Shown: positions 6,119 through 61,335, counted from the first letter of the stretch. The stretch is 64,000 bases of DNA from an uncultured Candidatus Saccharibacteria bacterium (GCA_964629235.1 CAZVQB010000001.1:4431-68430), one strand, 5' to 3'. Numbers and translations are program-made. Notes: generated by a model not told the origin, from the sequence alone.

Positions 6119-7201
6119 TTGATGTATTATATTTCAGTTATGTCAGACAAAAATTCTACAAATCCAAAATCCTCTTCAGTTTTATATAGGAAATACAGAC
6201 CATACAATTGGTCTGACGTTGTTGGGCAAGATCATATAATATCTGTTTTAGAGAATTCTATTAAACTTGATAAGATCGCTCACGCATATCTTTTTTCTGG
6301 TAGTAGAGGCACGGGTAAGACCTCTATTGCTCGTATATTCGCTCGTGCACTTGGTGTAAGTGACAATGATGTATATGAGATGGATGCAGCTTCAAATCGC
6401 GGTATAGACGATATACGAGAGATTCGTGATGGTGTAAGTGTTCTACCTTTTGAATCAAAATATAAAGTCTATATCATAGATGAAGTACACATGCTTACAA
6501 AAGAAGCATTCAATGCTTTGTTAAAGACTTTGGAAGAACCTCCAGCACATGCGATTTTTATCCTAGCTACAACTGAGACTGATAAAATTCCTGAGACGGT
6601 TCTTTCTCGATGTCAGATTTTTAGTTTTAAAAAGCCGAATAGGGAAGTATTAAAGACTTTGGTAAATAAAATAGCTAAGAAAGAAGGATTCACTATAGAT
6701 ACTGGTGTTGCTGATCTTATCGGTTTACTTGGAGATGGATCTTTTAGAGATACTTTGGGAATATTACAAAAAGTTATAAGTTCATCTTCTGATAAAAAGA
6801 TTTCAATGAAGGAAGTTGAAGAGATAACTGGAGCTCCAAGAGGGGAGTTGGTAAATAATTTTATATCTTCGCTAGCTTATGGTGATAAGGATCAAGCTTT
6901 TTCAATAATATTAAAAGTAAAAGAAGCAAATATTTCAATAAAGACATTTATTTCATTGATTCTAGAAAAAATTAGAATAATTTTAATTCTAAAGAATGTA
7001 AATTCTATATCATCAGTTGAATCGTTGAAACAGAGTGTATCAGAAGATGATTGGGTTATTTTGGAAAAGATTTCAAAAGATGAAAAAAGTAAAGTAGGAT
7101 TAAGTATGCTAAGAGAATTGTTGAAGGCTTATGATTTGACTTCCTATTCTTATATTGAGACTTTGCCTCTAGAAATAGCTATTGTTGACATAGTTTTATA
7201 G
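6119..7201 (+). CDS. dnaX: DNA polymerase III subunit gamma/tau (short form)
   Basis: AAA+ clamp-loader motifs (GSRGTGKTSIARIFARAL, SRC motif LSRCQIF); only 360 aa. Confidence 0.85.
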   Translation: MMYYISVMSDKNSTNPKSSSVLYRKYRPYNWSDVVGQDHIISVLENSIKLDKIAHAYLFSGSRGTGKTSIARIFARALGVSDNDVYEMDAASNRGIDDIREIRDGVSVLPFESKYKVYIIDEVHMLTKEAFNALLKTLEEPPAHAIFILATTETDKIPETVLSRCQIFSFKKPNREVLKTLVNKIAKKEGFTIDTGVADLIGLLGDGSFRDTLGILQKVISSSSDKKISMKEVEEITGAPRGELVNNFISSLAYGDKDQAFSIILKVKEANISIKTFISLILEKIRIILILKNVNSISSVESLKQSVSEDDWVILEKISKDEKSKVGLSMLRELLKAYDLTSYSYIETLPLEIAIVDIVL

Positions 7202-7204
7202 CGT

Positions 7205-7428
7205 GATACTATTCTGTGGACGGGTTCCTTAAATATTATGAAGCATATTATCATTGCTCGGCGTATCGGAGGAAAGCCGGAGAGAGTCGTGAGGTTGATC
7301 GAGATTTCGACACCCCCACCGAACAACGCAGTCGTGATCAATGACCACTGGAAACACAGGGTCATTCGACAAGGCACATAAGAGTCGCCAAACAGCCCTG
7401 TACGTACTATACGTACAGGGTCTTTTTT
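7205..7428 (+). ncRNA. structured ncRNA candidate downstream of dnaX (contains GAGGAAAGCCGGAG; class unresolved)
   Basis: About 220 nt GC-elevated ORF-less segment. It ends in an intrinsic terminator (ccctgtacgta-ctat-acgtacaggg + T-run, 7396-7428). Its motif tcGGAGGAAAGcCGGag resembles the RNase P P4 strand GAGGAAAGUCCGG and SRP domain IV purine-rich motifs, but the element is too short for a typical RNase P RNA. Confidence 0.3.
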
Positions 7429-7439
7429 CCACAATTTTA

Positions 7440-7695
7440 TTTGAAATCAGATTTGGGTTGTGATAATCTAGATTTTGGCTAGTTAATGACTCAAACCTAT
7501 GAATAAAGGTACCGTATTGCATCACCGAATCGGTCAAACCGATTCAATGCGCAAAAACAGGCGGAAGAAGGGATATACTCTTCCTGTCGGAATCAGACGT
7601 CATATGAGGAAGAGTTCTGAGGAAGGAGGTGAACACAAGTAGTGTTTGAAGAGTTCATCGTTCAATCCCCGAGTACATGTACTCGGGGATTTTGT
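7440..7695 (+). ncRNA. second possible small RNA / leader with its own terminator
   Basis: Purine-rich repeats (ggaagaaggg, gaggaagag, gaggaaggagg) are followed by a hairpin atccccgagtacatgtactcggggat + TTTGT at 7665-7695. No convincing ORF is present. Confidence 0.2.
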
Positions 7696-8662: not shown

Positions 8663-9683
8663 TTATTTGATTTCTACTTTTGATGGTTTGGGCGATGGAG
8701 TTATTTACTATCCAATTATTAGGTCTGTTGCAGAAGGCAATCCACGAAATCTATTTTATTGTGCGACAAACTTATTTTTTTCTGATAAAGACATATTAGA
8801 AAAACTAGACTTACCAAAAAATATCAAATTCGTTACTGAAGAATTTAGAAAGTTTCCAGAAGAAAACTATAATTATATATTAAACTTTTTATCTGAAAAT
8901 AATATAAAAAAAATAATAAATTTGAGATTTATCGGTAGAGATTTTGAAAAAGGCTACTTCAAATTCAAAGATCATGCAGAATCTAATAATCTAGATTTAA
9001 ATTTTTATGATAGTGAAAATATTTCTTTTTTTGAGAGCAACCATAACGCTCGGTCTGTGGTTTTAAAGATATTTGAAAATACCCTCGGTGGTGAAATTAA
9101 ATACAATGAATTTATACTGAAAACTATTTTCCCAGTATCTGATGATTCCGATGCTATTTTTATAAATATGCACTCAAGAGGCGATTTTAAATTATGGAAT
9201 ATCAATAAATGGTCTGAAGTTATCTCATCAATGGTTTTTTATGGTAAGAAGGTTTATGTTTATGACGGTTATGATGAAAAGGAAAAGGAATATACACGAA
9301 AAGTATTTGATAACTTAAGCCAAATCGTGAAAGGTAAAATTAATCTTTTGGTTGATAGTAATTTATTAGATTTGATATCTACTCTACAAAAGGCCAAATT
9401 GTTAATCTCAGTTGATTCTGGATTAATACATTTGGCTGATGCTGTCGGAGTCGAGTCTATAGGTATTTATCTAACCACCTCTCCTAGAATGTGGGGAGGT
9501 GTAACTGAAAAATTTCATTTTGTACAAAGTCTCCACATGAGAAATTGCAAAAAATTCTATAAACAATTTGGTATGTGTATGAATGGTAAGAAAAAATGCG
9601 AAGAGATTGAGGGTGAGAGTGACGATATAGACATTCATGAAATTTTTAATATAGTTAATAATATCTATGAAAAAGAAAATTAA
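8637..9683 (+). CDS. glycosyltransferase family 9 (heptosyltransferase-like)
   Basis: C-terminal motif LISVDSGLIHLADAVGVESIGIY matches the GT9 DSGpmHlAaAlg signature. Confidence 0.6.
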   Translation: MKLNNHQHNYLISTFDGLGDGVIYYPIIRSVAEGNPRNLFYCATNLFFSDKDILEKLDLPKNIKFVTEEFRKFPEENYNYILNFLSENNIKKIINLRFIGRDFEKGYFKFKDHAESNNLDLNFYDSENISFFESNHNARSVVLKIFENTLGGEIKYNEFILKTIFPVSDDSDAIFINMHSRGDFKLWNINKWSEVISSMVFYGKKVYVYDGYDEKEKEYTRKVFDNLSQIVKGKINLLVDSNLLDLISTLQKAKLLISVDSGLIHLADAVGVESIGIYLTTSPRMWGGVTEKFHFVQSLHMRNCKKFYKQFGMCMNGKKKCEEIEGESDDIDIHEIFNIVNNIYEKEN

Positions 9684-11505
9684 GCTAGCAGTTTTTGTTG
9701 ATGGAGATTTTATACCATCATATGATGGTGCTTCTAACCGATTTCACTATTTATCTAGGTATTTATCAAAACAAGGTATTGACCTGACTATATTTCATGG
9801 GTATAGAGGTTGGTCTAATATCTCTTTAATAAAAAAAGAGCCCTTTAAGACATACGTTTTTCCGATAGATAATTACTACAATAATCTTGAATTAATAGCA
9901 TCAATTTTGATTAAGGAAGGAGTAAACATTATTCAATTTGATAATCTTGAACCAATTCTCTTACAGGGAATTAAATTATCAAAACTTACTGGCGCTAAAT
10001 TGGTTAGCGAGATGCATTATGTGGTAAGAAGTTTGGCGAAAAGATTAGGCGCAGATAATGAGAGGCTATCTGAGATAGAGAAAATAGAATATGAAGTTGG
10101 TAAAAATATTGATCATTTAATATGTCTGAGTGAGCAAGATAAACCGTCTTTGATTAAGTATTTAAATATAGATGCTGATAAAGTATCGGTTATTCCTAGC
10201 GGGGTAGATATTAATGAGATTAAATACTTTGTTTCAGATTTTAAATCCAGAAATATTGTTTTTCTGGGGAATCTATATTTCAAACCCAATGAGGATGCGG
10301 TTAGGATTATAAAGGAAAAAGTATATCCAAAATTAAAAGATCAAGGTTTTAAATTTACTGTTGGAGGTGATTGTCCTCCGGATATTCAAAAAGAATTAAC
10401 TGATAAAAATTTTACTTTCATAGGCACAGTTCCTAATCTTAATGATTTGTTTAAGAATGCAACTTTTGCTCTGGCCCCCATTTTTGAAGGAACTGGTATG
10501 CGTATTAAATTATTGAATTATTTAGCTGCTGGTATCCCTGTTATAACTACGTCGATTGCTACAAATGGCTTTAACCAAAAAGAAGCTTTTATTGTTGAAG
10601 ACGATGTCTCAAAATACGCAGACATTATTCTAGATTTAGTTAATGATAAGAGGAAATTAAAAAATGTATCTAAAAGAGGACATAAGATTATTAAGAAATT
10701 TTATGATTGGAAAATTGTTGCTAAAAGAACAATTAAGACTTATAAAAATATTTTAAAAGAAAGAAATGTAGAAAAATTTGGTAACCATAGTATATTGAAA
10801 ACTAAAGAACCGGTATGGCTCCAAGAAGCTGTTGCCAAGCAAAGATTTAAACAGATTAAGAATCCTAGTCTACCAAAAGATTTTTCATATTGTGTTATAG
10901 AAAATAATTATATTAAAGATTATACTCTTAAAAAAATAGTTGCTTTGGAAGGTATGCCTGGTGCAGGTAAGACTACTTTTATAAATAGTTATGTAAAAAA
11001 TAATGGTAATATAAAATTCTTACCACAACTAGAGATTAAAAATAGAAAGATTTTAGAGAGAGATAATTTGGAAACAACTAAAATGTTTTTGTCTGCTGAA
11101 AAAGAAAAAAGTGATCTTATTAATCAAATTGCAAAAGAAAATAAGGAAATTGTAATTGATCGAACATTTTTAACTACCTTGGCATATTGTTATGCTAGGT
11201 CGAAAAAACTTAAAAATGATGAATACTCAAAGTTGATAGAGTTTTATAATAAGATTAAAGAAGATATCACTTTCCCTACAAAATTAATTTTCTTAGATGT
11301 TGAGAATAAAAGGAGTCTAGAAAGGAGAAGGCGATTTGCTAATAACCCCGATTACTCTAATTGGTTTGATGAAGAATTTTTAAATCATATGCGCGAATTT
11401 TATAAAAAAGAAATATCCAAATTTATTAACATAAAAGTTGATTATGTCGATACAACAAGTATGTCTATAGAAGAAGTTAGCAATACATTAAAAGAAATTA
11501 TATGA
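9667..11505 (+). CDS. bifunctional protein: N-terminal GT4/GT1 glycosyltransferase fused to C-terminal P-loop (TMPK/dNK-like) kinase domain
   Basis: Residues ~1-360 carry the GT4 signature (GTGMRIKLLNYLAAGIPVITT). Residues ~420-612 carry a Walker A motif (VALEGMPGAGKTTF) and a DR(Y)-like motif (VIDRTFLTTLAYCY) typical of thymidylate/deoxynucleoside kinase folds. Confidence 0.6.
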   Translation: MKKKIKLAVFVDGDFIPSYDGASNRFHYLSRYLSKQGIDLTIFHGYRGWSNISLIKKEPFKTYVFPIDNYYNNLELIASILIKEGVNIIQFDNLEPILLQGIKLSKLTGAKLVSEMHYVVRSLAKRLGADNERLSEIEKIEYEVGKNIDHLICLSEQDKPSLIKYLNIDADKVSVIPSGVDINEIKYFVSDFKSRNIVFLGNLYFKPNEDAVRIIKEKVYPKLKDQGFKFTVGGDCPPDIQKELTDKNFTFIGTVPNLNDLFKNATFALAPIFEGTGMRIKLLNYLAAGIPVITTSIATNGFNQKEAFIVEDDVSKYADIILDLVNDKRKLKNVSKRGHKIIKKFYDWKIVAKRTIKTYKNILKERNVEKFGNHSILKTKEPVWLQEAVAKQRFKQIKNPSLPKDFSYCVIENNYIKDYTLKKIVALEGMPGAGKTTFINSYVKNNGNIKFLPQLEIKNRKILERDNLETTKMFLSAEKEKSDLINQIAKENKEIVIDRTFLTTLAYCYARSKKLKNDEYSKLIEFYNKIKEDITFPTKLIFLDVENKRSLERRRRFANNPDYSNWFDEEFLNHMREFYKKEISKFINIKVDYVDTTSMSIEEVSNTLKEII

Positions 11506-12401: not shown

Positions 12402-12419
12402 AATCTTTCTACCCCCTCT
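12391..12419. terminator. perfect 12-bp palindrome hairpin spanning both convergent stop codons (bidirectional terminator candidate)
   Basis: AGAGGGGGTAGA-atctt-TCTACCCCCTCT. The left arm encodes the ...KRG* end of GT2 and the right arm (reverse complement) encodes the ...KRG* end of the TMPK-like gene. Confidence 0.6.
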
Positions 12420-12972
12420 TGATGATCTTGAGTATTTCGTTGACGGCGTTTTGAGGACCATCGACGGTATCGTCAATATGGTGTTGTATTCGTTTTTTAA
12501 ATTCCACAAGGCACCGACGCTCCATCTCTTGTCGAAGATTGAATTTCTCCATGTCCTTGACTGGTCCACCACGGCTGTAAAGTCGTTGTTGTCGCTTTTC
12601 TTCGTCACAAACTATCAGGAAAACATAGTCCGGCATGCGACAAAGGTGCTCGAAAGTTTCCTTGATATCGAGCCCATACACTGTGTGATAGCATATAGTC
12701 GACCAGATGTACTTATCACAGACAACGCTTTGGGTTTCCAGGGTCCTGCTAATCTCCCAGGAGGCATGTGCCACCGAAGAGAGATAAAACAAAAATCTGG
12801 ATCCTAGCGAAAGCCTGAGATCAGCCTCTTCCCGCATCTTACTGAATGGTGCGGGGGGAGTGGCGTAGTACTTGGCTGGTAGTTGTTGAGCCAACATCTT
12901 GGAAACTTCCGTCTTGCCGCTACCAGAAATACCTTCGATCACAATGAACAAGTTTGGATTTTTCTGATCCAT
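12409..12972 (-). CDS. thymidylate-kinase-like P-loop nucleotide kinase (GC-rich, likely horizontally acquired)
   Basis: Walker A motif FIVIEGISGSGKTEV and a DRY-equivalent CDKYIW; 187 aa. Local GC is roughly 45-48% against ~30% in neighbouring genes. Confidence 0.55.
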   Translation of the reverse strand: MDQKNPNLFIVIEGISGSGKTEVSKMLAQQLPAKYYATPPAPFSKMREEADLRLSLGSRFLFYLSSVAHASWEISRTLETQSVVCDKYIWSTICYHTVYGLDIKETFEHLCRMPDYVFLIVCDEEKRQQRLYSRGGPVKDMEKFNLRQEMERRCLVEFKKRIQHHIDDTVDGPQNAVNEILKIIKRG

Positions 12973-22150: not shown

Positions 22151-22501
22151 TTAGGCTGACTCGATAGTACTTCTTCGTACTGAGGTCGAGACCTGCTGGT
22201 GAATAGGGAGAGCGAATGTAAACATTCCGAAATTATTCCCAACCTTCCTACTGTGTATGACCGCCGTAAAACGCTGACCGGTTGATTTGACATAACCATC
22301 AAATCCAATATCTTTGGAATGCTTGGTTCTGGTCACTGTATTTACTACCAAGTTGAAGGTCTGAGATTTTTCCCTGCAACCTCTCTCAATGACTACGACC
22401 TCCAATGTTGTATTGTCGTCACTACTCATGAGCGCTTTTAGTAATTGCTCTCGAACCACCTTTCTGACAATTAAATACTGTCCATCCATATTAACCTCCA
22501 T
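22151..22501 (-). CDS. hypothetical protein (GC-shifted singleton)
   Basis: 116 aa with no recognisable motif. Local GC is well above the flanks. Its own terminator lies at 22103-22136. Confidence 0.3.
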   Translation of the reverse strand: MEVNMDGQYLIVRKVVREQLLKALMSSDDNTTLEVVVIERGCREKSQTFNLVVNTVTRTKHSKDIGFDGYVKSTGQRFTAVIHSRKVGNNFGMFTFALPIHQQVSTSVRRSTIESA

Positions 22502-30806: not shown

Positions 30807-30846
30807 AAAAACCAGCTACTCTACTGAAGTAGCTGGTTTTGTTTTA
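30807..30846 (+). terminator. intrinsic terminator
   Basis: aaaaccagctact-ctactgaa-gtagctggtttt. Confidence 0.7.
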
Positions 30847-31266
30847 ATCTTGGAATCGTGTAGGTGATTCTGTTGAATCATTATGCAGAAAGTACATTGA
30901 GATCAAGGTCCGTGTTGGACTAAGGATGATGCTACCGTTCTTACCTTTGATATTGACCAGTTTTTTCGGTAAGACTCCTCTCCAGTCGATGATTCTCAAA
31001 AGTGATTTTCTACTGATACCACTTATCAAGAATTTACCATGATCACTTCCGGAAAAAGAGATGAAATCAGTGATTGAAATTTCTCTCCAACAACCGATGA
31101 GTTGCCAGTACCGAATAAGAGACCAGATCACTAATCGATGGAATCTTATCGGCATTAGTTTATCGAAACCCTTAGGTTCGCAACTAGTTGAGAGATGCCG
31201 TGGCAAAATCGGATATTTCTGCACGGTCGATATTTTAATTCGTGGCATATTATTCCTTCTGAACAT
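30844..31266 (-). CDS. hypothetical protein (GC-shifted singleton)
   Basis: 140 aa with no recognisable family. GC is higher than the surrounding sequence. An AT-rich ~290 bp gap lies upstream. Confidence 0.3.
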   Translation of the reverse strand: MFRRNNMPRIKISTVQKYPILPRHLSTSCEPKGFDKLMPIRFHRLVIWSLIRYWQLIGCWREISITDFISFSGSDHGKFLISGISRKSLLRIIDWRGVLPKKLVNIKGKNGSIILSPTRTLISMYFLHNDSTESPTRFQD

Positions 31267-41092: not shown

Positions 41093-41581
41093 TCACTCGG
41101 GTAAAACCATGCGATCCAGACATCCAATATCCATGAAATGATCGCTGTGGAAGTGGTCGAGATTTACTCCTAGTTTATTATTATGTATATCAACAACTGC
41201 AACGAAAAATTTTCCAAAAACAATGAATGGAAAGTATGATGAATATCCACTAGGGTGAATATGTTGAGGATAGCTCTCTATCCAAGTCAGGATTTGATCC
41301 TGACTTTTCCAAAGCAGAAGTTCCAGTGAAGTGTTAAAAGAGCCCAATAGCTCTCTATATCCTTTAGCTATCGTAATCTCATATAGAGCTGAGGATGCTG
41401 GGCCTGTAGCAATAGTGGGGACGTTAGTACCTAATTTGCTGAATTTTGAATCGAAAAATCCAGGAAACATGTCACGTTGTGTGTAGAACGTTCGAGTACC
41501 AGTAGTAGCTGGAATGACGAGACCGCTCTCCAACCTGCGGAGGTAAGTCGTTGTTTCAGGCAATGCAGAAATGATAGCCAT
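41093..41581 (-). CDS. hypothetical protein (GC-shifted singleton)
   Basis: 162 aa with no recognisable family and elevated GC. Confidence 0.3.
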   Translation of the reverse strand: MAIISALPETTTYLRRLESGLVIPATTGTRTFYTQRDMFPGFFDSKFSKLGTNVPTIATGPASSALYEITIAKGYRELLGSFNTSLELLLWKSQDQILTWIESYPQHIHPSGYSSYFPFIVFGKFFVAVVDIHNNKLGVNLDHFHSDHFMDIGCLDRMVLPE

Positions 41582-48976: not shown

Positions 48977-49840
48977 CTAGAGACCTTCCTTTTTTAACTC
49001 TTCAACCAGTTTTTGAGCACTTTTTGATAGTTTCTTTGGCATATCTACTCTAGTAACGATAAGCAAATCCCCTCTTCTTCCTCTTTCATCTGGAACTCCC
49101 TTTTGTCTTACACGAAGTATTTCATTGTGTGTTGTTCCAGCTGGAATCTTTAATTCTATTTTTCCATCCAAAGTATCGAGATCTATAGTTGCTCCAAGCA
49201 ATGCTGTTGTTAGCTTTAGATCAAGCTCCATTATTAGATTCATTCCCTCTTTTCTAAAAACATCATGATCAGTCACCCATATTCGAACTATTAGATCACC
49301 TTTTCCTCCAGCACCCTCTTCACCCTTTCCTGATACTCGGAGTCCTTGTCCATTTTCTATTCCTGGTGGAATCTTTATAGATAGTTTCTCCTTATTTACT
49401 GTTACATCTTTTTCAACTCCGAAAATTGATTCTTTAAATGATATTTGAATATCAACTGTAATATTTGCACCCTTTCTCGGACGTCGTCCTCCACCTCCAC
49501 CGAAGAATTCTCCGAATATATCACCTAGATCGAATTCAAACGCTTGGCCGTTTTGACTCTGATATTGTCGAGCGAATCCTGAGAAATCAAATCCATCAGC
49601 ATTGAATCCTCCTTGATTTGGATTAAAACCAGATGGACCATCAGAACCGAATCTGTCATAATTTTGACGCTTTTGATCGTCAGAAAGAGTCGTATACGCT
49701 TCGTTTATCTCTTTGAATTTAGTATCGTTCCCATTATTTTTGTCTGGGTGATATTCATGAGCCAGCTTACGAAAAGCTTTTTTTATATCCTCTTTTGATG
49801 CGTTCTTTTCGACGCCTAAAGTCTTGTAGTAATCTTTCAT
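48977..49840 (-). CDS. J-domain co-chaperone (DnaJ type II / CbpA-like, no zinc-finger domain)
   Basis: J domain with the HPD motif (AHEYHPDKN), G/F-rich linker and two C-terminal beta-sandwich domains. No CxxCxGxG repeats. Confidence 0.75.
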   Translation of the reverse strand: MKDYYKTLGVEKNASKEDIKKAFRKLAHEYHPDKNNGNDTKFKEINEAYTTLSDDQKRQNYDRFGSDGPSGFNPNQGGFNADGFDFSGFARQYQSQNGQAFEFDLGDIFGEFFGGGGGRRPRKGANITVDIQISFKESIFGVEKDVTVNKEKLSIKIPPGIENGQGLRVSGKGEEGAGGKGDLIVRIWVTDHDVFRKEGMNLIMELDLKLTTALLGATIDLDTLDGKIELKIPAGTTHNEILRVRQKGVPDERGRRGDLLIVTRVDMPKKLSKSAQKLVEELKKEGL

Positions 49841-49954
49841 ATAGAGACAAATAATAGCAGAAATTGGGGTTGAGTAGGTCTTGACCTAGACTGTATTTTG
49901 TGATATGTATTTAGTAGATTTTGAGTAAATGATTGCTCAAAAAATATTGATATT

Positions 49955-50371
49955 ATGGATAAAAGTGATCGAACGAAAAGAATTTTGGCTTTGTCTGAAA
50001 GCATACAAAGCAAAATCAACGAACTCCGAGATCTATTGTGTGAGGATGCAAGGAGTCAGAAACTTGTGACTCATGACAATAATCCTTTTAATTGTAATCT
50101 TGGTGTATACATTGGAAGGAAAAGGTTGACACATAGTTATAAGATAAGGGGTCTGCCACTATTTTGTTCAGTAATGAAAAAGGGGTGGGAGATTTATCCC
50201 ACAGACTCAGGTCTCGAAAACAAAGTGTCTTTTCGCGACGTACCGATGGAAGATTTCATGTTAATACCTAAGTCTTGCCTGCTGAAGTACAGGCGAGTGG
50301 GTGAAAAGTCAATTTCTGTACTCAAGGAAATTGTACTGGAAGATGGTGGAAGACCACATTCATCCTGGTAA
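49955..50371 (+). CDS. hypothetical protein with RpoA-CTD-like helix-hairpin-helix C-terminus
   Basis: The C-terminal MEDFMLIPKSCLLKYRRVGEKSISVLKEIV resembles the RpoA alpha-CTD pattern L.VRS.NCLK....GKKSL.EIK. Elevated GC. First gene of the inserted cassette. Confidence 0.35.
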   Translation: MDKSDRTKRILALSESIQSKINELRDLLCEDARSQKLVTHDNNPFNCNLGVYIGRKRLTHSYKIRGLPLFCSVMKKGWEIYPTDSGLENKVSFRDVPMEDFMLIPKSCLLKYRRVGEKSISVLKEIVLEDGGRPHSSW

Positions 50372-50378
50372 CATTTTT

Positions 50379-50513
50379 CGCAAAACCGACCTCCGTAAGG
50401 ACAAGTCGGTTTTCTTTTATACCTGAAAGCTAATAACCGAAATATTGAGAGAATTTAACTAGATTTATTTTTGACTTTATATTCTACTCGTGTTATAAGT
50501 AAATAAACGAATT
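50379..50513 (+). repeat. 135-bp direct repeat copy 1: GNRA-hairpin terminator + TTGACT-17-TATAAG promoter
   Basis: About 94% identical to 51147-51281. Hairpin aaaACCGACcUCC-GUAA-GGAcaaGUCGGUuuuc at 50382-50418. Promoter at 50471-50499. Confidence 0.8.
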
Positions 50514-50602
50514 CGGGACGGATGTCCAAAGTTCTTCGCAACAATACAACAGGTTGGCCTAGAAAGGGCCAGGTTACCTGCATAAGAAAACCACATAAAT
50601 AA

Positions 50603-51127
50603 ATGAGCGAACAAGATTCGGATAGAATTGTGCCCCTCTTTGGGAAAATCAATTACGAGACAATGACGAAAACAATGGAATTGATGCTTGGCCATTGGAA
50701 AAAGGATCGTAATAAGGAAATCAAGCTTATCGTGTGTTCCTATGGAGGAATGTGTGATCCATCCTTCATGTTCATCGATATGATCAAATTTTACAAAATC
50801 AATTTGACCACAATTGCTTCTGGCGGTGTTGGTTCCATGGCTGTGCCAATTTTTGCATCAGGAATTAGGAGGTTTGTATCAAAACATGCAGACTTTTTTC
50901 TACACGACCTTGGTTTCAGTCCAGATAGCTACGAGCGCCTCTCAGTCTCTGAGCTTCAAAGAAAGTCAGACAATCTAGGAGTGTCACAGAGATGGTATGC
51001 GGATTATCTTGAAGAAAGAACTTCTGGCAAATTCAAGGCCTCAGAAGTTCTAAAAAGAATGAAAGCTGAGGTGTATCTATATCCCGAAGATATCATCAAA
51101 TTAGGCCTAGCACATGAGATGATTTGA
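50603..51127 (+). CDS. truncated ClpP-family (S14) serine protease-like protein
   Basis: 174 aa alignable to the ClpP core. The Ser-containing GGVGSMA aligns with GQAASMG, and His in FFLHDL aligns with MIHQP. An acidic residue sits near the Asp171 position. Lacks the N-terminal axial loops. GC-shifted. Confidence 0.6.
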   Translation: MSEQDSDRIVPLFGKINYETMTKTMELMLGHWKKDRNKEIKLIVCSYGGMCDPSFMFIDMIKFYKINLTTIASGGVGSMAVPIFASGIRRFVSKHADFFLHDLGFSPDSYERLSVSELQRKSDNLGVSQRWYADYLEERTSGKFKASEVLKRMKAEVYLYPEDIIKLGLAHEMI

Positions 51128-51146
51128 GATCAGGATTAGATTTAAA

Positions 51147-51281
51147 CGCAAAACCGACCTCCGTAAGGACAAGTCGGTTTTCTTTTATACCTGAAAGCTA
51201 ATAACCGAAATATAGCGAGATTTTAACTAGATTTATTATTGACTTTATATTCTACTTGTGTTATAAATAAATAAGCAAATT
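51147..51281 (+). repeat. 135-bp direct repeat copy 2: terminator + TTGACT-17-TATAAA promoter
   Basis: Same module as 50379-50513. Promoter at 51238-51266, upstream of the 88-aa ORF. Confidence 0.8.
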
Positions 51282-51320
51282 GAAACAAAAACTAAAAGTT
51301 CATCAAAAATAAGGTAATAT

Positions 51321-51587
51321 ATGAGTGAATTCAAGTGTCTCATCAGTCTTGGGGTAAAATCTGAAACAGAAGAAATGGAATTTCTCCGCAAGAGGCTTCT
51401 TTCATTCGTTCCACAATTGGGAATGAGCATACTACTTCTAGGAATGGATTATGAATCAAAGATAGTCCATGTTGGCTATGTTGAGTCAACTCAAGAATCT
51501 TCGTTTGATGTATCTCTTGGTGTTCAAAATTTGAATCAACACCAGATTAATCAATTGATAGAAAATGGGTGGGAAAAAATGAGTTGA
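51321..51587 (+). CDS. hypothetical 88-aa protein (third cassette gene)
   Basis: No recognisable motif. Followed by a third related hairpin terminator at 51612-51650. Confidence 0.3.
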   Translation: MSEFKCLISLGVKSETEEMEFLRKRLLSFVPQLGMSILLLGMDYESKIVHVGYVESTQESSFDVSLGVQNLNQHQINQLIENGWEKMS

Positions 51588-51611
51588 TAATTGCTTGTAT
51601 TTTTTAAATAC

Positions 51612-51650
51612 GAAAACCGGCCTCCTTACGGAAAGCCGGTCTTCTTTTTA
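51612..51650 (+). terminator. intrinsic terminator, covarying variant of the cassette hairpin
   Basis: aaaACCGGCcUCC-UUAC-GGAaaGCCGGUcuuc. The stem changes versus the repeat copies (accgac/gtcggt to accggc/gccggt) are compensatory. Confidence 0.7.
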
Positions 51651-51667
51651 TTTACTATATTTATTTT

Positions 51668-53572
51668 CTACTTCTTCTCTTTAAACTCCGCATCTTTCAC
51701 ATCTCCTTCTGCACCTTGTGGGCCCGCTCCGCCATTTGCTCCTGTATCACCTGGTGGTGTCTGAGCTTGTTGAGCTTTTGACAATATCTCACCTATCTTT
51801 GAAAGTTCTGAAGATAGTGCTTCTGTTGTTGTCTTTAATCTTGCACTATCTGTTCCTTCTTTTGCACTTTTTACATCTGCTATTTTATCTTCAATACTCT
51901 TTCTTAGATCTGCTGGAACTTTGTCTCCTGCATCTTTCAATGATTTTTCTGAAGTGTGGATTAGTTGTTCTGCCATATTCTTTGCTTCAACCATTTCCTT
52001 TTTCTTTGCATCTTCTGCTGCATGCATTTCGGCTTCCTTTTTCATTTTTTCTACTTCTTCTTTTGAAAGTCCTGAACTTGCTGTGATCTTTATACTATTT
52101 GCTTTTCCAGTTGCTTTGTCTTTTGCTGTAACTGAAAGAATACCGTTTGCATCAAGGTCAAAAGTAACTTCGACTTGTGGCATTCCTCTAGGTGCTGGTG
52201 CAATACCGTCTAGTATAAATCGTCCTAGTGACTTATTGTCTGCTGACATTGATCTTTCACCTTGTGTTATGTGAATTTCTACTGATGTCTGATTGTCCGC
52301 TGCTGTAGAGAATACTTGGGACTTCTGAGTAGGAATTGTAGTGTTCTTGTCGATTAGTTTTGTTGCTACTCCTCCCATAGTTTCTATAGCTAAAGAAAGT
52401 GGAGTAACATCTAGTAGCAAAACCCCTTTTACATCACCACCAAGAATACCTCCTTGGATAGCCGCTCCCACCGCAACCACTTCGTCTGGATTTACACCAA
52501 GGTGTAAATCTTTACCGAAGAAATCTTTCACTGCTTTTTGCATAGCAGGCATACGTGTCTGTCCTCCAACCAAGATCACTTCATTTATCTCCGGGATCTT
52601 AAATGGTGAAGCGTCCATAGCACGCTTTGTGATAGTTATAGCTCTATCAATAAACTCTCGTGTAAGCTCTTCGAGCTTCGCTCTAGTCATTGTAACTAGA
52701 AGGTGTTTTGGTCCATCTGCACCTGAAGTTAGGAATGGAATATTCACTTCTGTTTGCATTGCTGTTGAAAGCTCAATCTTTGCTTTTTCTGCAGCTTCAT
52801 CAAGTCTCTGTAGAGCCAATGCATCTTTTCTTACATCTATTCCTTCTTGCTTCCTGAACTCTTCAGCAAGCCAATCGATGATCTTTTGATCGATATCTTT
52901 ACCTCCAAGATGTGCATCTCCATCTGTTGATTTTACTTCTACTACATCGTCTCCAACTTCAAGAACAGAGATATCAAATGTACCTCCACCGAAGTCGAAT
53001 ACTACGATCTTTTCATTCTTCTTTTTATCGAAACCATAAGCAAGAGCGGCTGCTGTTGGTTCGTTTATAATTCTCTTTACATCAAGACCTGCGATCTTAC
53101 CCGCATCCTTTGTTGCTTGTCTTTGTGCATCGTTAAAGTATGCAGGTACTGTTATAACAGCTTCAGTTACTGGTTCTCCAAGTCTTGATTCTGCATCAGC
53201 TTTCATCTTTGCAAGAATCATAGCTGATATCTCTTCTGGTCTATACCATTTATCTCCCATCTTCACTTCAATTCCTCCAGTTGCACTCTTTTGAATTTCA
53301 AAAGGTACAGATGATCTGTCTTTCTGAACTGCTGGATCATCGAAGTTGTGACCGATGAATCTTTTTATTTGATAAATAGTATTTTTAGGATTTGTAACTC
53401 CTTGTCTTTTTGCCAATAGACCTACCATTCTATCGCCAGCTTTTGACATGGCAACTATAGAAGGAGTAGTTCTAGCACCTTCTGCGTTTTCTAATATTTT
53501 AGGTGTACCAGCTTCCATCACTGCGACGGCTGAGTTGGTAGTACCTAGATCAATTCCGATTATTTTACTCAT
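51668..53572 (-). CDS. dnaK: molecular chaperone DnaK (Hsp70)
   Basis: 634 aa with canonical Hsp70 motifs ([18 protein letters not shown], ...). Confidence 0.95.
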
Positions 53573-53726: not shown

Positions 53727-54023
53727 TTACATAGAAGGCGCCCTAGTTGGTTGACTCATAAAAAAATCTAAATTTATATAAGGAGATAAAATAGAAATAA
53801 AACTAGATGTAGTATCTAGAGCAATATCTTTCTTTGATATTTCTTGAGGAAGAAAAACTACTTCTTCTTTATTTTTAACTAAAGCTTCAGCAGAAATAAT
53901 AACAGGTTGAAACTTCCCGTTATTTTCAACTACAGTAAAACGAATACGAACTAAAATACCATTTTTATCTCGTATTATTCTTTCGAATATGCTATTCAGT
54001 TGTTTAGTTGGAATAGCTAACAT
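53727..54023 (-). CDS. hypothetical 98-aa protein between grpE and dnaK
   Basis: ORF in the conserved grpE-dnaK intergenic position; no recognisable domain. Confidence 0.3.
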   Translation of the reverse strand: MLAIPTKQLNSIFERIIRDKNGILVRIRFTVVENNGKFQPVIISAEALVKNKEEVVFLPQEISKKDIALDTTSSFISILSPYINLDFFMSQPTRAPSM

Positions 54024-54059: not shown

Positions 54060-54602
54060 CTATTTAGCTTCCCCAATCTTCACCTTTGGAGCCTTTAAAA
54101 CCTTACCATGAAGCTCGTAGCCTTTTTGGACGACTGTTGTAACGATATCATTTGCCTTACCATCCTCTATTGCCTCATCTCGCATAGGGTCAAAAGTCTT
54201 ACCTATAGGATCTATTTCTTTTAGACCGAATTCTTCTAATACTTTCTTTAGTTGATTTGCTATATATTCAACACCGACTCTCCAGTTTTTATCTGCTTTT
54301 TCCCATACCTCTTTGTTCCCCATCGCCATATTGAAACTATCAAGTACTGGTATAAGTTCAGATATTAGACTTTCATTAGAAAAACGAGCGAAGTCTTTTT
54401 GAGCTTCTTGATCTCTTCTTCTTGCATTCATGAAGTCAGCTTTGTCTCTTTGCCAAGAGTTTAGATACTCTTGTTTTTCTTCAATAGCTTTCTTTAATTT
54501 TTCTTTTAAAACCTTAACAGTTTCAGTTGCATTGTCTTCAACAACAACTGAATCGTCTAGGTTTTCATCTTTTTCAATTGTTATATCATTTTCATCTTTC
54601 AT
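54060..54602 (-). CDS. grpE: nucleotide exchange factor GrpE
   Basis: Long N-terminal coiled coil plus C-terminal GrpE beta-domain (DPMRDEAIE...G..L.KA.V..GE). Confidence 0.85.
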   Translation of the reverse strand: MKDENDITIEKDENLDDSVVVEDNATETVKVLKEKLKKAIEEKQEYLNSWQRDKADFMNARRRDQEAQKDFARFSNESLISELIPVLDSFNMAMGNKEVWEKADKNWRVGVEYIANQLKKVLEEFGLKEIDPIGKTFDPMRDEAIEDGKANDIVTTVVQKGYELHGKVLKAPKVKIGEAK

Positions 54603-58768: not shown

Positions 58769-60151
58769 TCAATGCTTATACTCTATTGTAATCTTTTCTA
58801 CAGAATTTGGGAAGGACCTTAGCCAGAAAGGTGTGATTAAAGCATAAGCATTTGCTATTGCAGAATACTTTGCAAAAATAGCATTACTATCCTTCAAATT
58901 TATACCTTTTAATTCATCCTTTAACTTCTCTTCAGAGAAAGTACCAGTTATAGATATTGGCCCCTTAAGAGTGAAAATTAGTGGAGTCGCCTTTTTTGCT
59001 GAAAAATCCTTAATATTTGAAATATTAAATGTTAATTCTTTATCACCAGTTATATTGTAAGTATCAGATGGGAACTTTTTTATCTCTTTACCTGCTATGT
59101 ATTTTATCAATGTATCACTATTAAATATCGCTCCATAAGCTATTCCTTTAACTATAAGATCAGCATCTTCATTTGTCTTCATCACTGGTTCTGATACCTC
59201 GTATTCAATATTGTAAGCACCATCATAAAGTATATGATCTGGGGTAACACTTTCCTTTAATTTTGAAATTAATTGTTCCTTTAGACTATCCTGCATATCT
59301 TTAATAGCTGTCTTTTTTGATTCCTCATTTATAGTCATTTTATTACCAGAGTAACCACCTACCACATCAGTCTTTAATCTAGCATAGAAACCTGCATACT
59401 TTGGTGTACCTTGATATCCAGGAAGTTTAAAATCACCTTTCAAATCAGCAACTTTTAAATTGTACTTATCCCCAGCTTGATCAGCCACGATTGCTACAGA
59501 TACACTACCAGGTGTTGTTTTTTTACCAGGCACCACAACAGTTGATGAGGTTCTGTATACATTCCCTTGTGTATTTGAAAGTCTTGTACCGGCAACTATA
59601 GTCTGGGCTGTTGCAGAATAATTATTGTATATAATGGCTGTCCCTTTTGCTTTTGTCTGAACTAAAGGACCTTTAGTTGCAGGAATAGTTTGACTTAGCA
59701 TATCTGTGACAGAAATTACCTCATAACCAAATTCTTCTGTTGTATTTGATTGTGATTTTTTAGCAGTAAATGTACCGCTTATATCGAAATTTGTAATTTT
59801 AGGAGTAATGGTAACCACTGCTTTAGAATATGATAAAGACAGAGCAATACCTATAACAACCAATGAAACTAATACAATTATAAAAGTTAGTAAATATTTA
59901 TAAGAGCCTCCTCCAGAACTAGGCTTCTTTATTTTTGTTTTTCTTCGGTGAGATTTTTCTTCAACCTCTTCCTCTTTTTCCTCAACTTCGTCGTTTACCT
60001 CCTCTTGTTCTTGTTCCTCTTCTATTTCTTCCTCTTCTTCATCCTCTACTACAGGTCGTCTCTTCTCTTTAGTTATATTGATCTTACGGATAGAGCGTCT
60101 ATCCCCAGGTACAATATCTTGAACAATTTTTTTTCCAGTTTTTATTGCCAT
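58769..60151 (-). CDS. hypothetical membrane-anchored protein with highly acidic N-terminal tail
   Basis: A Glu-rich run (EDEEEEEIEEEQEQEEVNDEVEEKEEEVEE), one TM helix and a ~350 aa Thr/Gly-rich extracytoplasmic domain. It sits where secY-adk-map normally precede infA. Confidence 0.3.
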   Translation of the reverse strand: MAIKTGKKIVQDIVPGDRRSIRKINITKEKRRPVVEDEEEEEIEEEQEQEEVNDEVEEKEEEVEEKSHRRKTKIKKPSSGGGSYKYLLTFIIVLVSLVVIGIALSLSYSKAVVTITPKITNFDISGTFTAKKSQSNTTEEFGYEVISVTDMLSQTIPATKGPLVQTKAKGTAIIYNNYSATAQTIVAGTRLSNTQGNVYRTSSTVVVPGKKTTPGSVSVAIVADQAGDKYNLKVADLKGDFKLPGYQGTPKYAGFYARLKTDVVGGYSGNKMTINEESKKTAIKDMQDSLKEQLISKLKESVTPDHILYDGAYNIEYEVSEPVMKTNEDADLIVKGIAYGAIFNSDTLIKYIAGKEIKKFPSDTYNITGDKELTFNISNIKDFSAKKATPLIFTLKGPISITGTFSEEKLKDELKGINLKDSNAIFAKYSAIANAYALITPFWLRSFPNSVEKITIEYKH

Positions 60152-60171: not shown

Positions 60172-61335
60172 TCATACTCTGTCCTTTCTTAAAGCAAATG
60201 TGTATATCCTCATCATATTACTAACTTCAACTCCCTTACCAAACTTTATTTGATTACCAATAGATATTGAATCATAAGCTATTACATCAAAGTTTAATTT
60301 ATTTTGAAATATCAAAGCTTCTTTAAAAAGATCAAAATGGCTGTGTGCAGATAAATACACAGTTCTTGGAATACTTGTTATATCCAAAACCCCCTCAAAA
60401 GATTTTATACACAAATCACTCCATTCATGGACCAAGGGGGTAATGATTCTTTGCATATTTTCTTTTTCTTGTTCACTTAATTTATCACCTTGAAATAGAG
60501 ATATTAAAGAATCACTTGTTTCAACACTTTCATTTGATCCATTTGCTACTTTTCTTAAAACAGTTTTAATTCCAAAAGGAAAAGATATTATATGTTTACA
60601 CAATCCATCTTTAACAGCAATAAGGTCGGTCAATTCACTATGTACATGTATATAAAGATATTCATTCTTATTCTTCAAAACCTCTTGCATAGCAATATAT
60701 TGCATCAATAATGCCGAATGAATACTATGTTTCTTAACATGAATATATTTGTTTATCGTATCGTGTACCTTATCTAAAAACTGACTCGAGCCAAATGAAG
60801 TAGACAGAGAAACTTCTAAAGTATGTGCCTTTTTACCCTGAAACATTACTGCCGGATAGCCATTCAGTCTCACCTCAAATATTTTCTGTTCTACAGGTCT
60901 AATATCAGCAACTGCTGAATTGTTTTTTAATTCTTCTTTTATAATATTTTCTAGAATATCTGTAGTGATTTCAGTTTCTTTTTCATAATTAATCCTTACA
61001 GTTTTCAGTTTTGAATTGATCCAAGGATCTGAGAGTGTATAACTTACATAAGATATTGTATTTCTGCCATTATCTCTAGCGAGATGTTCTGCTACTTCAG
61101 CAATCAATTTTAGCATTTTCTTAACTAAATGCTCAGAATTTAATATTTGCGATTTGCCAGATATAGACTTGGTTACAACACAAGTAATAGTCGAGGGTTC
61201 ATTCGGTTTATCAACAACCAAAGCGCCTCTGACAAGACCACTTTGAATATCAATTATAATACTTCTTACTTCCTTTTTTTTATTGGAAAAAAGCGAAAAC
61301 ATGATTGCTATATTATAGCATGGAGAAATATGCAA
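60172..61335 (-). CDS. hypothetical actin-like ATPase fold protein (FtsA/PilM-like?)
   Basis: Two phosphate-like motifs, SIIIDIQSGLVRGALV and YLYIHVHSELTDLIAVKDG, are spaced as in ASKHA-fold proteins. Assignment is weak. Confidence 0.25.
   Translation of the reverse strand: MHISPCYNIAIMFSLFSNKKKEVRSIIIDIQSGLVRGALVVDKPNEPSTITCVVTKSISGKSQILNSEHLVKKMLKLIAEVAEHLARDNGRNTISYVSYTLSDPWINSKLKTVRINYEKETEITTDILENIIKEELKNNSAVADIRPVEQKIFEVRLNGYPAVMFQGKKAHTLEVSLSTSFGSSQFLDKVHDTINKYIHVKKHSIHSALLMQYIAMQEVLKNKNEYLYIHVHSELTDLIAVKDGLCKHIISFPFGIKTVLRKVANGSNESVETSDSLISLFQGDKLSEQEKENMQRIITPLVHEWSDLCIKSFEGVLDITSIPRTVYLSAHSHFDLFKEALIFQNKLNFDVIAYDSISIGNQIKFGKGVEVSNMMRIYTFALRKDRV

Follow-up and report, generated by a model that had tools for sequence, protein, structure and literature searches.

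Organization of the dnaJ-dnaK gap

We analysed 64 kb of DNA (64,000 nucleotides (nt); this whole stretch is called the window below) from an uncultured Candidatus Saccharibacteria bacterium, and here describe the gap between its dnaK gene and a gene for a J protein (dnaJ below), in which a short ClpP-like peptidase is encoded. The window is AT-rich chromosomal DNA (GC content 0.339) filled with housekeeping genes, including those for aminoacyl-tRNA synthetases, DnaB and TypA and a ribosomal-protein/rpoA cluster, and its source organism belongs within the Candidate Phyla Radiation (CPR)/Patescibacteria. On the minus strand lie grpE, orf98, dnaK and, 1.8 kb further on, the J-protein gene. Plus-strand open reading frames (ORFs) of 138, 174 and 88 codons all fall inside the dnaK/J-protein gap. 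An earlier note on this DNA had described the same three ORFs between the same two minus-strand genes, and that anatomy is real; it had also read them as a GC-shifted cassette that splits a chaperone locus, a reading that we weigh below. Related contigs compared with the window are labelled L001-L030 and P0007. The features of the locus are as follows.

48977-49840, minus strand: J-protein gene, class II (CbpA-type), by Pfam PF00226 (E=1.7e-25) and PF01556 (E=1.6e-41)
49841-49954, plus strand: divergent intergenic region on the dnaJ side, with candidate promoter P0 and a hairpin in the 5'-untranslated region (5'-UTR), by conservation and folding
49955-50371, plus strand: orf138, a lineage-restricted orphan of 138 amino acids (aa)
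50379-50513, plus strand: repeat copy 1, with candidate terminator T1, a 56-nt spacer and candidate promoter P1, by repeat search and sequence reading
50521-50600, plus strand: predicted structured leader of the ClpP-like mRNA, by folding and covariance model
50603-51127, plus strand: ClpP-like S14 peptidase gene (174 aa), by Pfam PF00574
51147-51281, plus strand: repeat copy 2, with T1', a spacer and P1', by repeat search
51321-51587, plus strand: orf88, a small conserved protein (88 aa) with homologues in relatives
51612-51654, both strands: T3, a hairpin common to the 3' ends of orf88 (plus) and dnaK (minus), by folding
51668-53572, minus strand: dnaK (HSP70), last in the grpE-orf98-dnaK unit, by precomputed Pfam HSP70/GrpE matches on identical contigs
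53727-54023, minus strand: orf98, between grpE and dnaK, with 61-97% aa identity in relatives
54060-54602, minus strand: grpE, by Pfam GrpE

A ClpP-fold protein without axial loops

The 174-aa ORF scored 58.7 bits against the Pfam CLP_protease profile PF00574 (cutoff 20.2, E=9.1e-16; profile positions 15-178 of 182), which bears out its earlier assignment to the ClpP family. An AlphaFold2 model built from a 108-sequence alignment had a predicted local distance difference test score (pLDDT) of 96.7 and a predicted template modelling score (pTM) of 0.91. The top Foldseek matches of this model in the Protein Data Bank (PDB) were all ClpP, with template modelling (TM) scores of 0.86-0.89 and a root-mean-square deviation (r.m.s.d.) of about 1.5 Å over 170 columns; for Thermus ClpP (6hwn) the values were 0.88, 1.5 Å and 170 columns. 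The core and the handle, a long helix at residues 115-139, are complete in the model.

Ser78 and His101, rightly described before as conserved, are invariant across 150 relatives. Glu156 occupies the position of Asp171 of Escherichia coli ClpP (mature numbering; in the E. coli motif 'ERDRF') and is invariant in nine close relatives; of 150 sequences from the wider family, 71 have E at this position, 23 have N and 13 have D. The predicted triad is Ser78-His101-Glu156, in which Glu could serve as the acid. The His of the C-terminal 'GLAHE' was considered as a substitute for the catalytic Asp and was ruled out, because E. coli Asp171 aligns with Glu156.

At the N-terminus, 7-8 residues precede the first core strand, and the alignment begins at about residue 40 of the E. 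coli precursor (about residue 26 of the mature protein). Relative to mature E. coli ClpP the protein is short of about 18-20 residues, and the axial loops are absent. Thus the description of the protease as truncated holds for its N-terminus but not for its core and handle. The short start is a family trait: among about 150 members the median is 7 residues before the core, versus 40 in the E. coli precursor. In canonical ClpP the N-terminal loops plug or gate the pore and contact ClpX or the ATPase (PMC9035409). We took the roles of the docking-pocket residues and of the oligomerization-sensor Arg (Asp/Glu-Arg sensor) from the same review and read the corresponding positions from the alignment. 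The sensor Arg, E. coli R170, aligns with Ala155. In the H-site pocket F82, I90, F112 and L189 are kept hydrophobic, whereas Y60 is changed to K, F49 to G (E/K/D in the family), M92 to S and L114 to S (T/G/S in the family).

Against the NCBIfam ClpP equivalog models the protein reached 22-46 bits where the cutoffs are 228-361, so that its scores are 5-10 times under cutoff (TIGR00493, 25 versus 308.6 bits; best subfamily model, 45.6 versus 228), and 108 of 108 family members scanned were also below the cutoffs. A HMMER search returned 1,129 cluster representatives at E≤1e-3, mostly of 170-180 aa. Judged by these profile scores, the 174-aa protein is a member of S14 and not a canonical ClpP orthologue, and the short ClpP-like proteins make up a sizeable, uncharacterized short branch of S14. 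ClpP itself (MEROPS S14, PF00574) is the core of ClpXP, ClpAP and ClpCP. The protein resembles it in fold, core length, handle helix, the placing of Ser and His in the same motifs (GSMA; hhH) and an acidic residue at the Asp171 position. It differs in lacking the axial gating loops and the sensor Arg, in having Glu instead of Asp and polar residues at several H-site positions, and in ending with GLAHEI, with no C-terminal tail.

These features bear on whether the protein is simply the housekeeping ClpP of this lineage, doing the usual work with ClpX or ClpC and owing its short N-terminus to a quirk of a reduced genome. Its score clears the Pfam CLP_protease cutoff and it goes by the name ClpP in existing sources; it keeps the full fold with the handle helix and a predicted triad in the form Ser-His-Glu, it is under strong purifying selection (below), and in one relative its gene lies near a gene with Clp_N and two AAA domains. 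However, the gating and ClpX-contact loops (function as in PMC9035409) are absent across about 150 members, the equivalog scores stay at 22-46 bits, and the docking-pocket and sensor positions are not conserved in the alignment. Some close relatives also lack the gene, as would not be expected if it were the sole ClpP. Furthermore, the AAA+ neighbour, in L013, is an 892-aa protein with a ClpB_D2-small domain that looks like ClpB, and ClpB does not dock ClpP. We consider a housekeeping role of this kind doubtful. No clpX, clpA or clpC gene was found within the window, and a literature search for ClpP in Patescibacteria gave nothing relevant, the mentions of ClpP in TM7x papers concerning the host.

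A second origin to be weighed is that the protein is the remnant of a prophage head-maturation protease of the ClpP-type prohead class. Its best PHROG matches are head maturation proteases (phrog_94, E=1e-12), NCBIfam Clp_rel_HeadMat matches at E=3e-6, and the remote similarity to phage prohead proteases (phrog_94, NF045542) extends over the whole S14 core. Yet the scores are sub-threshold (NF045542, 27.2 bits versus a cutoff of 120), there is no capsid, portal or terminase gene nearby, the neighbours being dnaJ, dnaK and small ORFs, and a search with a 9-sequence alignment found no relative of the protein in 2.9 million viral contigs. The chromosomal position is conserved over deep divergence, and cellular ClpP structures fit the model at least as well. 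A prophage origin is therefore highly improbable.

Conserved position and selection

We found that the ClpP-like gene keeps its place in relatives. In L012 (79% identity) it is divergent from dnaJ and convergent with dnaK, and in L019/P0007 (53%) it likewise lies between a divergent dnaJ and a convergent dnaK. In L009/L017 (89%) it is in the dnaJ-dnaK gap and abuts dnaK, and about 6 kb taken up by other genes separates it from dnaJ. It adjoins dnaJ in L030 (60%; dnaJ side only), lies 1.7 kb from dnaJ in L020 (37%), and is two genes from a ClpB-like gene in L013/L018 (a 56% relative). L001-L008 encode an identical ClpP-like protein and have essentially identical repeats in the same arrangement.

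The synonymous divergence (dS) of the gene resembles that of dnaJ: between the window and L009 it is 0.44 for the ClpP-like gene and 0.56 for dnaJ, and between the window and L012 it is 0.95 and 0.86, respectively. The ratio of non-synonymous to synonymous divergence (dN/dS) of the ClpP-like gene is 0.09-0.13, indicating purifying selection. Judged by synteny and divergence, the gene is an old, vertically inherited resident and not a recent insertion. The proposal of a cassette inserted so as to split dnaK from dnaJ thus does not hold, since relatives at 53-89% identity have the ClpP-like gene in the same gap with a dS like that of dnaJ.

The total GC content of 49841-51660 is 0.366, an unremarkable value that 15% of equal-sized windows reach or exceed; that of dnaK is 0.40. 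The reported GC elevation is real at third codon positions only. GC content there (GC3) is 0.41 in the ClpP-like gene, 0.37 (0.374) in orf138 and 0.315 in orf88, against a gene mean of 0.255 (standard deviation 0.075). In every relative examined (L009, L012, L013/L018, L019 and L020) the GC3 of the ClpP-like gene is 0.39-0.52, with neighbours at 0.21-0.31, and it stays raised even though the gene has diverged at synonymous sites as much as dnaJ has. The same trend is seen in the orf88 family. Because raised GC3 is present in all relatives, it is a stable property of the gene rather than the fading trace of a recent transfer. Relatives therefore share the position of the gene but not the ordinary GC content that the earlier note had coupled with it. 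A GC3 stably raised in a vertically inherited gene is unpredicted by current models (amelioration after transfer).

Small ORFs with high GC3 (0.36-0.53) also occur elsewhere in the window, all on the minus strand, at 12409-12972, 22151-22501, 7229-7537, 30844-31266 and 41093-41581. One is thymidylate-kinase-like and the others have no Pfam match. These five and the three genes studied here may form one compositional class.

A variable slot between two conserved genes

The other two plus-strand genes have histories of their own. Homologues of orf138 form only two clusters, at 99% and 90% identity, and the 90% copy (L016) also adjoins dnaJ. Its dN/dS is 0.46 and its dS of 0.11 exceeds that of the adjacent dnaJ (0.027). 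It has no match in Pfam (E≤1), PHROG, NCBIfam or PADLOC and no PDB sequence match below E=0.98, and BLASTP against this genome's RpoA gave E=98. A helix-hairpin-helix like that of the RpoA C-terminal domain (PF03118), as suggested for orf138 before, thus found no support from sequence searches of Pfam, of PDB sequences or of the organism's own RpoA. In these comparisons orf138, alone among the three, behaves like a recent, fast-evolving addition. By contrast, orf88 has homologues at 93% and 73% and a dN/dS of 0.25. The dnaJ-dnaK gap is where its 73% copy is found in L015, and also where tblastn placed a 32% match in L020 (9298-9591). No family match was found for it in Pfam, PHROG, NCBIfam or PADLOC; by its conservation, orf88 is a real, conserved gene.

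What the gap contains differs between relatives. In L012 and L019 it holds the ClpP-like gene only. In L015 it holds the orf88 homologue and a Fic/RhuM gene without the ClpP-like gene, and in L024 and L025 it holds small hydrophobic peptides, again without the ClpP-like gene. The gap of L009 contains, besides the ClpP-like gene, a Fic/RhuM gene, a PemK toxin-antitoxin pair, a glycosyltransferase and a GHMP kinase. The accessory genes, small membrane peptides among them, lie at 3873-9868 in L009, 8381-9757 in L015 and 10066-10744 in L024. On this comparison of contigs the dnaJ-dnaK gap is a hotspot of accessory-gene turnover, and it is best described as a variable slot between two highly conserved genes. 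The three genes do not form one cassette, as the ClpP-like gene and orf88 occur independently of each other in L012, L019 and L015.

With these data we could weigh the idea that a three-gene mobile, proteolytic or defence cassette was recently acquired and inserted between dnaK and dnaJ. Several observations point that way: all three ORFs exceed the host mean in GC3, the gap in relatives holds toxin-antitoxin and Fic/RhuM genes and so accepts foreign DNA, direct repeats flank the ClpP-like gene, and this gene is missing from the gap in L015, L024 and L025. Against it, the position is conserved down to 53% identity with a dS equal to that of dnaJ, the three genes occur independently, and the raised GC3 persists and does not decay. 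The repeats are a terminator-promoter junction that is single in relatives and not insertion scars (below). The suggestion of a defence module fares no better: neither the three proteins nor orf98 matched a PADLOC defence model at E≤1, there is no viral relative of the ClpP-like protein, and no mobility gene, integrase or transposase lies nearby. Recent acquisition is thus largely refuted by synteny, and we regard it as very unlikely. Of the alternatives raised in the earlier note, 'stress-regulon accretion' seems closer to the evidence than an inserted cassette.

Repeats, promoters and terminators

The 135-nt direct repeat (50379-50513 and 51147-51281, 94% identical), the hairpins and the TTGACT-17-TATAAG/A promoter sequences are all present as first described. 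The T1 hairpin spans 50382-50414 and the T1' hairpin 51150-51182, each followed by a U-tract. In 64 kb there are exactly two copies of the 33-nt hairpin core, where 0 are expected. Other matches to CCTCCNNNNGGA in the window lie inside coding genes; the hairpin family is not spread through the window, and no viral contig carried the hairpin. Folding energies of the three related hairpins are -15 to -16 kcal/mol, with z about -4 to -4.6, and each hairpin has a U-tract behind it. T3 folds at -15.9 kcal/mol on the plus strand, with a U-tract, and at -22.7 kcal/mol (z=-5.5) on the minus strand, where UUUUCGUAUUU follows. It is kept beside the 3' end of dnaK in L009, L012, L015 and L020.

Each of the three candidate promoters has a 17-nt spacer with TGn. 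P1 consists of TTGACT (50471-50476) and TATAAG (50494-50499), P1' of TTGACT (51239-51244) and TATAAA (51262-51267), and P0 of TTGACC (49881-49886) and TATGTA (49904-49909). A consensus scan for promoters and terminators gave background-level counts; it missed the P1 promoters, since it demands T at position 6 of the -10 box, and it missed bulged hairpins. At the level of sequence, the data support three separate monocistronic units, with a promoter and a hairpin terminator for each gene. These signals resemble ordinary intrinsic terminators (a GC-rich hairpin and a U-tract) and sigma-70 extended -10 promoters (TTGACT-17-TGnTATAAG, position conserved in relatives). They are unusual only in the recent duplication of the terminator-spacer-promoter junction and in a long leader in a mostly leaderless genome.

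The halves of the repeat are found singly in relatives. The T1 half stands alone in L009, L012 and L015; the T1 hairpin follows the first plus-strand gene past dnaJ in L009, L015 and L016, and the ClpP-like gene in L012. L009 and L019 keep P1 and the leader ahead of their ClpP-like gene. The orf88 homologue of L015 has a P1-like promoter directly before it, within a stretch that aligns without a break (78%) to 51239-51660 of the window. The T1-spacer-P1 junction is doubled only in the lineage of the window, where it flanks the ClpP-like gene. With its halves single in relatives, the repeat is a duplicated terminator-promoter junction and not an insertion scar. The idea of a module bracketing each gene has to be given up: only the ClpP-like gene is flanked by both copies, and the duplication is lineage-specific.

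On the dnaJ side, about 70 nt next to the dnaJ start (49846-49915) are invariant across relatives in which the dS of dnaJ is about 0.85. This stretch contains P0 (TTGACC-17-TATGTA) and probably also holds the dnaJ promoter. A possible extended -10 box, TGCTATTAT, ends 8 nt before the dnaJ ATG and fits the leaderless pattern of this genome (below). The 5'-UTR hairpin at about 49919-49944 folds at -15.4 kcal/mol (z=-3.6), and a G:C pair of the window is a compensatory A:T in L012 and L015. In L012 the region with P0 and this hairpin directly precedes the ClpP-like gene.

A predicted structured leader upstream of the ClpP-like gene

Among 51 gene starts examined over the whole window, Shine-Dalgarno sequences were present in 3, whereas 24 had a -10 box (at least 5 of 6 positions matched) ending 5-13 nt (mode 6) before the ATG. 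This suggests that leaderless mRNAs are the norm in this genome. The three plus-strand genes depart from this norm, having leaders of 38-97 nt.

The leader downstream of P1 is about 97 nt long, with about 75 nt conserved. A 111-nt leader segment folds at -27.3 kcal/mol (z=-3.5), with a core hairpin at 50550-50580 (CAGGU-UGGCC-UAGAAAG-GGCCA-GGUU-ACCUG). A pattern search found the leader in five further metagenome contigs. Copies lie at 9921-9998 in L009, 5921-5996 in L019, 10826-10900 in L024, 1039-1113 in L025 and 6492-6566 (minus strand) in L027. A covariance model scored 73-94 bits in the window, L009/L010, L019, L024, L025 and L027/L028, with one copy per locus; it found no other credible copy in 233 kb and no second copy in the window. 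Rfam gave no match over 50514-50602, the only matches being sub-threshold, chance-level ones on T3. The hairpin loop AGAAAGG is complementary to a typical 3' tail of 16S ribosomal RNA.

An upstream ORF of 26 codons in the leader was considered and ruled out: a 2-nt deletion in L009 brings it to an early stop, and the frame is missing from L019 and L024. On the opposite strand, ORFs of 65-72 codons overlap both the leader and the 5' end of the ClpP-like gene (50455-50695, minus strand, in the window; 9893-10093, minus strand, in L009), and some public contigs (L010, L011) annotate them as genes. They are probably spurious, because features of the sense strand explain their conservation.

These data raise the possibility that the true functional unit is the element downstream of P1, acting at the heat-shock locus as a cis-regulatory or small RNA, and that the genes behind it, the ClpP-like gene included, are interchangeable cargo. 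The promoter-leader pair stands before the ClpP-like gene in the window, L009 and L019, and before unrelated small genes in other relatives, namely 54-62-aa hydrophobic peptides in L024 and L025 and an unrelated 63-aa ORF in L027. The core hairpin and its flanking A-rich tracts are kept in L009 and L019, and the DNA can be aligned to L019 (69.7% identity over 343 nt, covering the leader and the gene start) although the proteins are only 53% identical. The inner stem has two compensatory pairs; three further pairs change on one side only and stay paired as G-U, and the loop-closing pair (columns 40/46) is unpaired in three of six sequences. The genome is, moreover, otherwise mostly leaderless. 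On the other hand, the stem evidence is thin, coming from six distinct sequences found with a pattern that fixed the outer stem and the loop; the ClpP-like gene of L012 and L020 does without this leader, and there is no known ligand, protein or temperature dependence. We think it unlikely, while a serious possibility, that the leader is the unit that matters, and this view complements rather than replaces the explanation that we favour below. In either case the leader is a candidate for a new structured leader RNA tied to the dnaJ-dnaK gap.

A further suggestion links two possibilities, and we offer it tentatively, as rather unlikely. P1 and the leader of about 75 nt could be an undescribed cis-regulatory RNA controlling a swap-in slot for accessory genes at the heat-shock locus in CPR bacteria that otherwise have mostly leaderless genes without Shine-Dalgarno sequences. 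The ClpP-like proteins of about 175 aa, which form more than 1,000 clusters at 50% identity, could be a distinct, gate-less, unfoldase-independent branch of S14 that serves protein quality control in reduced genomes.

An interpretation of the locus

We favour, with a probability of roughly 60%, the explanation that the dnaJ-dnaK gap is a long-standing variable slot, with a gate-less ClpP-fold peptidase as its main occupant and a local duplication of one junction. In this CPR/Patescibacteria clade the gap would have long served as a slot for small plus-strand genes. The most persistent of these would be the vertically inherited, selectively maintained serine peptidase with its predicted Ser-His-Glu triad, which may act on peptides or unfolded chains either with no canonical AAA+ partner or with a non-canonical one. 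That the gene recurs beside dnaJ and dnaK, and in one lineage lies near clpB, suggests that its product takes part in protein quality control.

Transcription of the locus would run in separate units. P0 would drive orf138 as far as T1; P1 would drive the 97-nt structured leader and the ClpP-like gene as far as T1'; and P1' would drive orf88 as far as T3, where the convergent dnaK unit would also end. T3 is predicted to be a good minus-strand terminator, and therefore dnaK transcription should stop there and dnaJ needs its own promoter, for which the proximal -10 box is the candidate. The repeat may have arisen when recombination joined a 'P1-leader-clpP-like-T1' unit to a 'T1...P1-orf88' unit in this lineage, and the direct repeats could now allow the ClpP-like gene to be looped out.

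The arrangement can be compared with the canonical hrcA-grpE-dnaK-dnaJ operon controlled by CIRCE (controlling inverted repeat of chaperone expression, the HrcA operator). As there, grpE, dnaK and a J-protein gene cluster on one strand. Unlike there, hrcA is absent from the 64 kb, orf98 stands between grpE and dnaK, and opposite-strand genes and a predicted bidirectional terminator part dnaK from dnaJ, so that dnaJ must be transcribed separately.

Several points weigh against this explanation. A search of the window for CIRCE, allowing up to 3 mismatches, gave no match. An inverted repeat TTGAG-N10-CTCAA at 49921-49940, resembling the HspR-associated inverted repeat (HAIR), is unique in the window and, with one mismatch, occurs at chance frequency; as a single-copy, chance-level element it was rejected as a shared heat-shock operator that would co-regulate the slot with the chaperones. 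The ClpP-like gene is absent from some close relatives (L015) and therefore dispensable. Simple vertical descent, subject to the mutation bias of the host, does not predict a raised GC3 in all relatives. Promoters, terminators and the leader are predictions from sequence, independence from a partner is something we infer from alignment positions and a monomer model, and the host genome is known here from the 64-kb window only.

If the favoured explanation is right, what looked like an inserted, specially wired cassette would be an old variable slot with ordinary promoters and terminators, one junction of which was recently duplicated. The peptidase would then represent a large S14 subfamily without gating loops and, if independent of AAA+ partners, would show how ultra-small bacteria trim their proteolysis machinery.

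Neighbouring genes and other observations

The J protein has a J domain and a DnaJ C-terminal domain without the zinc-finger domain (Pfam), and its gene is kept in all relatives with a dN/dS of about 0.02. For orf98, dN/dS is 0.2 and GC3 is very low (0.12), and we found no Pfam, PHROG, NCBIfam or PADLOC match; the gene may belong to the chaperone operon as a lineage-specific part.

Two minus-strand ORFs of 460 and 387 aa (58769-60151 and 60172-61335) lie just upstream of infA and the ribosomal-protein cluster. They have no Pfam domain at E≤1e-5 and a weak precomputed Baseplate_J match, and their position is conserved in relatives. Finally, the plus-strand ORF at 9667-11505 encodes a 612-aa protein with glycosyltransferase family 4/1 domains and a C-terminal thymidylate-kinase-like domain, an unusual fusion.

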